Shown piece by piece: positions 1 to 311 of a stretch of 311 nt of DNA. The translations under genes were made by a program, and so were the position numbers. The notes below the pieces were generated by a model, which worked only from the letters and a program-made list of their open reading frames with translations, was not told the DNA's origin and did no database searches. Source of the stretch: Escherichia coli. Lineage in GTDB: Bacteria > Pseudomonadota > Gammaproteobacteria > Enterobacterales > Enterobacteriaceae. How positions within the stretch are numbered: position 1 is the stretch's first letter; each line of letters opens with the position of its first letter. The stretch lies in the NCBI RefSeq assembly GCF_003334355.1, contig NZ_QOWP01000116.1, one strand, 5' to 3'.

Positions 1-165
1 GCGCGATTTAGCCCCGACGTATCCCCACTGTTCGTCCATTTCCGCGCAGACGATGACGTCACTGCCCGGCTGTATGCGCGAGGTTACCGACTGCGGCCTG
101 AGTTTTTTAAGTGACGTAAAATCGTGTTGAGGCCAATGCCCATAATGCGGGCGGTTGCCCGGCAT
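1..165 (-). CDS. insB: IS1 insB / insB' frame (catalytic part of the InsAB' transposase), first 55 codons; 3'-partial, continues beyond position 1
   Basis: Manual minus-strand translation in the -1 frame relative to insA gives [55 protein letters not shown]..., closely matching the InsB N-terminus as I recall it. The frame is open from an upstream in-frame TGA at 187..189, and the first ATG is at 163..165, which is the conventional annotated insB start. Established knowledge: the functional transposase is the InsAB' fusion made by frameshifting, not independent initiation at this ATG. Overlaps insA across 84..165. Confidence 0.85.
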
Positions 166-311
166 CCAACGCCATTCATGGCCATATCAATGATTTTCTG
201 GTGCGTACCGGGTTGAGAAGCGGTGTAAGTGAACTGCAGTTGCCATGTTTTACGGCAGTGAGAGCAGAGATAGCGCTGATGTCCGGCAGTGCTTTTGCCG
301 TTACGCACCAC
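84..311 (-). CDS. insA: IS1 InsA (transposition inhibitor / transcriptional repressor), C-terminal 75 codons plus TAA stop; 5'-partial, N-terminus lies beyond position 311
   Basis: The six-frame track ORF translates to ...[74 protein letters not shown], which matches IS1 InsA residues ~17-91 as I recall them. The second cysteine pair of the N-terminal zinc-finger-like motif (C-x2-C) is encoded at 255..266, and the C-terminal half carries the helix-turn-helix region. The track's initial M is an artefact: 309..311 is an internal GTG (Val) codon. Stop codon TAA is at 84..86 (plus-strand tta). Confidence 0.92.
102..108 (-). other. Programmed -1 ribosomal frameshift slippery heptamer A-AAA-AAC (A6C) joining insA to insB'
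   Basis: Plus-strand gtttttt at 102..108 is AAAAAAC on the minus strand, in the insA frame as TTA-AAA-AAC (108..110, 105..107, 102..104). Slipping back one base gives AAA-AAA-CTC and continues into the InsB-like frame (..LKKLRPQSV..). The insA TAA stop lies 16 nt downstream of the heptamer, at 84..86. Confidence 0.82.

Follow-up and report, generated by a model that had tools for sequence, protein, structure and literature searches.

An internal 311-nt segment of an IS1A-like insertion sequence IS1 spanning the insA–insB′ frameshift site

The stretch of DNA analysed here (311 nt, in the following called the window) is, judged by sequence comparison, an internal piece of the insertion sequence IS1 of the IS1A-like type. 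This identification is secure, because the matches to annotated IS1 copies far exceed chance. The best match among E. coli records was an annotated IS1 copy of strain PSS-12 (NZ_AP027697.1; 100% identity, E = 5e-161), followed by matches of 99.7%, and the matching E. coli genes are annotated as 'IS1-like element IS1A family transposase'. Overall, the window showed an identity of 98.4% to K-12 IS1A, of 99.7% to the commonest haplotype and of 100% to one annotated copy. As mapping reference we used the full 768-bp element at the PSS-12 locus (L001), in which 23-nt imperfect inverted repeats (78% complementary) lie 722 nt apart, adding up to the canonical 768 bp. The following features were found in the window:

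1–311, minus strand: internal IS1 segment with no element end, equal to nt 104–414 of the 768-bp element (window 311 to 1 corresponds to IS1 nt 104 to 414)
84–311, minus strand: insA codons 17–91 and TAA stop (86–84), from the translated open reading frame and matches to NCBIfam NF033558 and NF050000
252–311, minus strand: InsA zinc ribbon, C-terminal 20 positions with the second Cys pair CSHC (Pfam PF03811 Zn_ribbon_InsA, E = 1.6e-9)
102–233, minus strand: helix-turn-helix DNA-binding domain of InsA/InsAB′, nearly complete (Pfam PF12759 HTH_Tnp_IS1, E = 7.9e-29)
135–137, minus strand: insA codon 75, ATT (Ile) for GTT (Val); the changed base is window position 137 (T on the plus strand), IS1 nt 278 G>A
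102–108, minus strand: intact A6C slippery heptamer AAAAAAC, the programmed −1 frameshift site (IS1 nt 307–313), read from the sequence
1–105, minus strand: insB′ frame after the shift, InsAB′ residues 86–120 (KLRPQSV...GAKSR), by translation; it exits the window at position 1
1–57, minus strand: start of the DDE catalytic domain (Pfam PF03400 DDE_Tnp_IS1, E = 4.4e-6; residues 86–104 on model positions 1–19 of 131)

The original prediction had named IS1 and placed both boundaries of the element beyond the window, and both claims were borne out, the first by the 100% and 99.7% identities to annotated copies. When the window was searched for the terminal repeats IRL and IRR at up to three mismatches, neither was matched, and both boundaries therefore lie outside it. 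According to the mapping, IRL (nt 1–23) is located 81–103 nt beyond window position 311 and IRR (nt 746–768) 332–354 nt beyond window position 1. In a complete insertion, GGTGATGCTGCCAACTTACTGAT (reverse-complemented on the plus strand) would end 103 nt past position 311. In total, 457 of the 768 bp of IS1 are outside the window, among them the two ends, the promoter, the first 16 codons of insA and the greater part of the DDE domain. The addition of 500 bp on each side, as proposed in the original prediction, covers both ends plus ~150–400 bp of flank, which suffices for locating the ends and the target duplication and is too short for a second IS1 copy.

Furthermore, the coding content of the window follows the organisation of the insA–insB′ unit. 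The InsA fragment, whose first 16 codons fall beyond position 311, is identical to K-12 InsA in 74 of 75 residues. Its residues 1–20 align to positions 16–35 of the 35-position zinc-ribbon model, the first 15 model positions being beyond the window edge, and residues 27–70 cover positions 1–44 of the 46 positions of the helix-turn-helix model. The insA stop is located 16 nt downstream of the A6C run. Read in the −1 frame, the sequence between the slippery site and position 1 has no stop codon, and the amino acids of this insB′ stretch are identical to those of K-12 InsAB′. The other 112 positions of the DDE model lie beyond position 1, and the domain is complete in the 232-aa InsAB′ of L001. 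As expected, the Pfam domains occur in the order Zn_ribbon_InsA, HTH_Tnp_IS1, DDE_Tnp_IS1.

When scored separately against the IS1 family transposase profile NF033558, the InsA part reached 81.9 bits and the insB′ part 26.3 bits. The −1 fusion of both parts matched continuously over profile positions 9–111 with 115.9 bits. Because the fused frames match this profile continuously and above its curated cut-off of 100, insA and insB′ are one frameshifted gene, for which we regard this match as direct evidence. The annotation of the identical copy in RefSeq likewise reads 'programmed frameshift'. The original prediction had stated that both genes are truncated only by the window edges and show no visible mutation. 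This agrees with our reading: insA is open from position 311 to its TAA stop at 86–84 and insB′ is open to position 1, there are neither internal stops nor indels, the A6C run is intact, and of the five differences from K-12 IS1A four are synonymous and the fifth is the conservative change V75I. Two open reading frames of 25 and 30 aa on the plus strand were dismissed: they lie opposite the conserved coding sequence of IS1, and nothing speaks for them.

A scan of both window strands against Rfam (E ≤ 1) yielded no family. For the 115 nt of RNA starting at the slippery site we obtained a minimum free energy of −32 kcal/mol compared to a mean of −33.4 for shuffled sequences (z = +0.47), i.e. no extra stability. 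A pseudoknot has been proposed in the literature (PMC12428005); minimum free energy folding is blind to pseudoknots, and this result speaks neither for nor against it.

Of the functional parts of IS1, the window covers the module that binds DNA, the switch in translation and just the beginning of the catalytic domain. In IS1, a promoter overlapping IRL, repression by InsA, the A6C frameshift leading to the 232-aa InsAB′ and a target duplication of 8 or 9 bp have been described (PMC12428005). In the element from which the window stems, a weak promoter in the left end would accordingly transcribe insA and insB′ together. Normal translation would yield InsA, with its zinc ribbon and helix-turn-helix, which would bind the IS1 ends and repress transcription. 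A rare −1 slip of the ribosome at the A6C run (about 2% in one plasmid-based report; PMC12428005) would bypass the insA stop and produce InsAB′, the DDE transposase that would move the element and leave behind the 8–9 bp duplication of the target.

We consider it very probable that the window is the middle of a complete 768-bp IS1 in the genome of Escherichia or another enterobacterium. All 28 assessable related copies (L001 and 27 others) were full-length with 768 bp, in a sample that is biased to intact copies since the full-length relatives were fetched via intact ORF products. Target duplications of 8 or 9 bp were present at L004, L006–L009, L018 and L026 and in neither L001 nor several other copies. 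Nothing in the window itself speaks against a complete insertion; as a limit, the sole exact match, the PSS-12 copy (L001), is without such a duplication. We infer that the ends beyond the window are intact, and the copy itself may be active. Intact sequence does not in itself imply activity, because K-12 copies that are only nine bases off IS1A are nearly inert (PMC12428005).

The window was further compared with the IS1 copies of E. coli K-12 and with the commonest haplotype. Five sites vary, located at window positions 288, 153, 137, 22 and 19 (IS1 nt 127, 262, 278, 393 and 396, respectively). K-12 IS1A and IS1E (the 'consensus' IS1 of 768 bp) have the same organisation, the same A6C site and the same InsAB′ residues after the shift, and are identical to the window in 306 of 311 bases. 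Of the five differences from IS1A, two are silent in insA (nt 127 and 262) and two in the insB′ frame (nt 393 and 396), and the one at nt 278 leads to V75I. K-12 IS1B, IS1C and IS1D (types II and III) share with the window the bases at nt 127, 262 (IS1B and IS1C only), 393 and 396. Unlike these three copies, the window has IS1A-type bases at nt 298, 301 and 304, and A at nt 278. Because nt 298, 301 and 304 are of the IS1A type, the window keeps Leu81 and does not have the L81F substitution of the inert K-12 copies. By these diagnostic bases, the window haplotype is a mosaic of IS1A-type and IS1B/C-type bases.

The commonest haplotype, annotated as 'IS1-like element IS1A family' (for instance L002 of strain Combat11I9), is identical to the window in 310 of 311 bases and has G at nt 278, and thus Val75. 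The G>A change at nt 278, located in the helix-turn-helix domain, is therefore the sole difference between the window and the commonest copies of the IS1A type. Single genomes have this common haplotype at up to 40 or more places, and plasmids from E. coli, Enterobacter, Serratia and Salmonella carry it as well.

In the assembly collection, 161 indexed blocks contain the InsA protein with V75I, which occurs at many chromosomal sites in full-length copies. Five of these sites (L004 and L006–L009, four of them in one genome) have clean target duplications of 8 or 9 bp, from which it follows that the allele has transposed. V75I is thus a genuine allele that circulates and has moved within other genomes. 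Moreover, it sits on at least three synonymous backgrounds. This recurrence suggests, from base comparisons, either that IS1 copies have exchanged sequence by recombination or gene conversion, or that the mutation has occurred repeatedly. We also considered that V75I, on its mosaic background, might alter binding to the element ends and hence the balance between repression and transposition in this IS1 lineage, with its recurrence reflecting selection or gene conversion, and regard this as a rather improbable proposal. If true, such an effect would tie in with the few substitutions that are reported to make K-12 IS1B, IS1C and IS1D nearly inert. According to a recent study of K-12, IS1A and IS1E account for more than 99.9% of IS1 transposition, and IS1B, IS1C and IS1D, with nine mismatches to IS1A, are nearly inert, L81F in the helix-turn-helix being a candidate cause (PMC12428005).

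The exact 311-nt sequence is rare. Among 20,395 E. coli records it was found at 100% in one, that of PSS-12. No 100% match was obtained in 72,556 plasmids (the best being 99.7%) or in 50,697 phage records. A validated exact pattern of 146 nt, which spans four of the five diagnostic sites and not the whole window, gave nothing in 100,044 species-representative genomes and nothing in metagenome contigs. None of 23 further IS1 copies fetched via exact protein look-ups was identical to the window. For the PSS-12 copy, the 167-aa ORF in the InsB frame gave no record in an exact look-up, and the 125-aa form of this ORF occurs at many loci, none of them with the exact window. Of the sequenced enterobacteria, the collections searched cover Shigella, draft assemblies and non-E. 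coli chromosomes only in part.

The original prediction had called the context of the element undeterminable. From the window alone this still applies; the rare haplotype, on the other hand, gives a single candidate locus, namely the interval between topB and gdhA in PSS-12. A more specific reading, which is possible and which we put forward tentatively, is that the window derives from the IS1 in the topB–gdhA interval, either of PSS-12 itself or of a strain closely related to it, and that an IS1-mediated adjacent deletion at this place removed a gene of the Hsp70 family together with the 5′ end of the gene for its J-domain/TPR partner. In favour of this, PSS-12 is the only record at 100% across E. 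coli, plasmid and phage records, and its IS1, which has no target duplication, stands in place of 2,368 bp that are found in strain MINF_7C. However, PSS-12 holds 21 IS1 places and the exact match is known for one locus. In addition, a sequence one base away from a very abundant haplotype can arise more than once, and the partial coverage of Shigella, draft assemblies and non-E. coli chromosomes also weighs against this origin.

At the PSS-12 locus itself (L001 2647–3414), IS1 is located between topB and a truncated TPR/J-domain pseudogene adjoining gdhA. No second IS1 was found within 20 kb on either side of it. Its flanks, ...ACAAAACG and GCCAGTAAC..., show no target duplication. In MINF_7C the same interval contains an intact J-domain gene and an Hsp70-family gene, and in the alignment PSS-12 is without 2,368 bp (L027 5500–7867 of MINF_7C) exactly at the IS1 junction. 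The lost segment, between gdhA and topB, comprises the 5′ 614 nt of the J-domain/TPR gene, the whole Hsp70-family gene and a 57-nt spacer. On this comparison, the PSS-12 locus bears the mark of an IS1-adjacent deletion in a pair of accessory chaperone-like genes. A simple insertion with a corresponding 'empty site' was also considered for this locus and rejected: no genome in the collection joins both flanks, and the comparison with MINF_7C points to a deletion.

As a separate observation, the topB-proximal flank (L001 3680–3914) is only about 90–93% identical to most E. coli genomes, and the whole PSS-12 locus is about 96–97% identical to MINF_7C, which is unusually divergent for a core region. 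This hints at a divergent lineage or a recombined segment.

We then weighed whether the window lies in one arm of an IS1-flanked composite transposon or in a plasmid-borne resistance or virulence region. Composite transposons of the Tn9 type are well established. IS1 is abundant on conjugative plasmids of many Enterobacterales: at least 5,000 plasmid records match the window (up to 99.7%), most of them with several IS1 copies, and their hosts include Escherichia, Klebsiella, Enterobacter, Salmonella, Citrobacter, Shigella and others. A few phage records match as well, P1 among them. In addition, close pairs of IS1 were seen among the related loci (L013 and L019). We nevertheless judge this location unlikely. 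The exact window is on none of the 72,556 plasmid records, and its only exact match is a solitary chromosomal copy. Matches to the window were found at 72,921 places in 9,391 records, representing 4,965 of the 5,426 complete E. coli genomes (at least 80% of the window was covered in 9,278 E. coli records), and among the E. coli places the chromosomal ones (58,671) exceed those on plasmids (14,250) by about 4 to 1.

The related loci illustrate what IS1 does to its surroundings, in line with the original prediction that it disrupts genes, causes rearrangements and occurs in pairs: a split gene at L004, the 2.4-kb deletion at L001, and two copies close together at both L013 and L019. At L004 (2946–3713) an IS1 encoding the V75I InsA splits a gene for a sigma54-dependent response regulator and is flanked by a perfect 9-bp target duplication (CGTTTATCG); the split gene adjoins genes for a HisKA sensor kinase and a Metal_resist protein, an arrangement like that of zraSR/zraP. 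At L013, one IS1 (2946–3713) abuts a 133-aa N-terminal fragment of BrxC beside brxB and brxA, and a second (5920–6276) starts about 2.2 kb further on, so that L013 may be an IS1-bracketed, disrupted BREX defence locus. L019 contains two full-length IS1 copies (1331–2098 and 2126–2893) in direct tandem, 27 bp apart and beside an RHS-repeat gene; a target duplication was found for neither. At L026, a diverged IS1 of 91% identity (866–1633, minus strand) and one of 99.9% identity (2126–2893, plus strand) face in opposite directions within a fimbrial chaperone-usher operon, with about 500 bp between them, and each has a 9-bp target duplication of its own.

We regard it as very unlikely that the window stems from a remnant, be it truncated or defective in another way. 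Remnants and rearranged copies of IS1 do exist, and the IS-rich CP4-6 region of K-12 holds fragments of other IS elements adjoining IS1B. In the window, however, both frames and the slippery site are intact and the base changes are either synonymous or conservative. Moreover, each of the 28 related copies that could be assessed has the full length, and the copy with the exact match comprises all 768 bp and both inverted repeats. The copy at L011, which had been suspected to be a remnant, turned out to be full-length and more diverged (94.5%).

A complete IS1 thus remains our preferred reading of the DNA around the window. Few mobile elements of enterobacteria are as abundant or as well studied as IS1, and this window, which contains only its well-known middle, carries little weight alone. 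What the analysis adds is its precise position within IS1, the mosaic haplotype with V75I and a single locus as candidate origin. We annotate the window as IS1 nt 104–414, on the minus strand, with apparently intact insA, insB′ and frameshift site. A gene disruption, a deletion or a composite transposon would show only in the flanks. If the window belongs to a locus of the PSS-12 type, what happened there would be a deletion next to IS1, of an ordinary kind, in an accessory pair of Hsp70 and J-domain genes.
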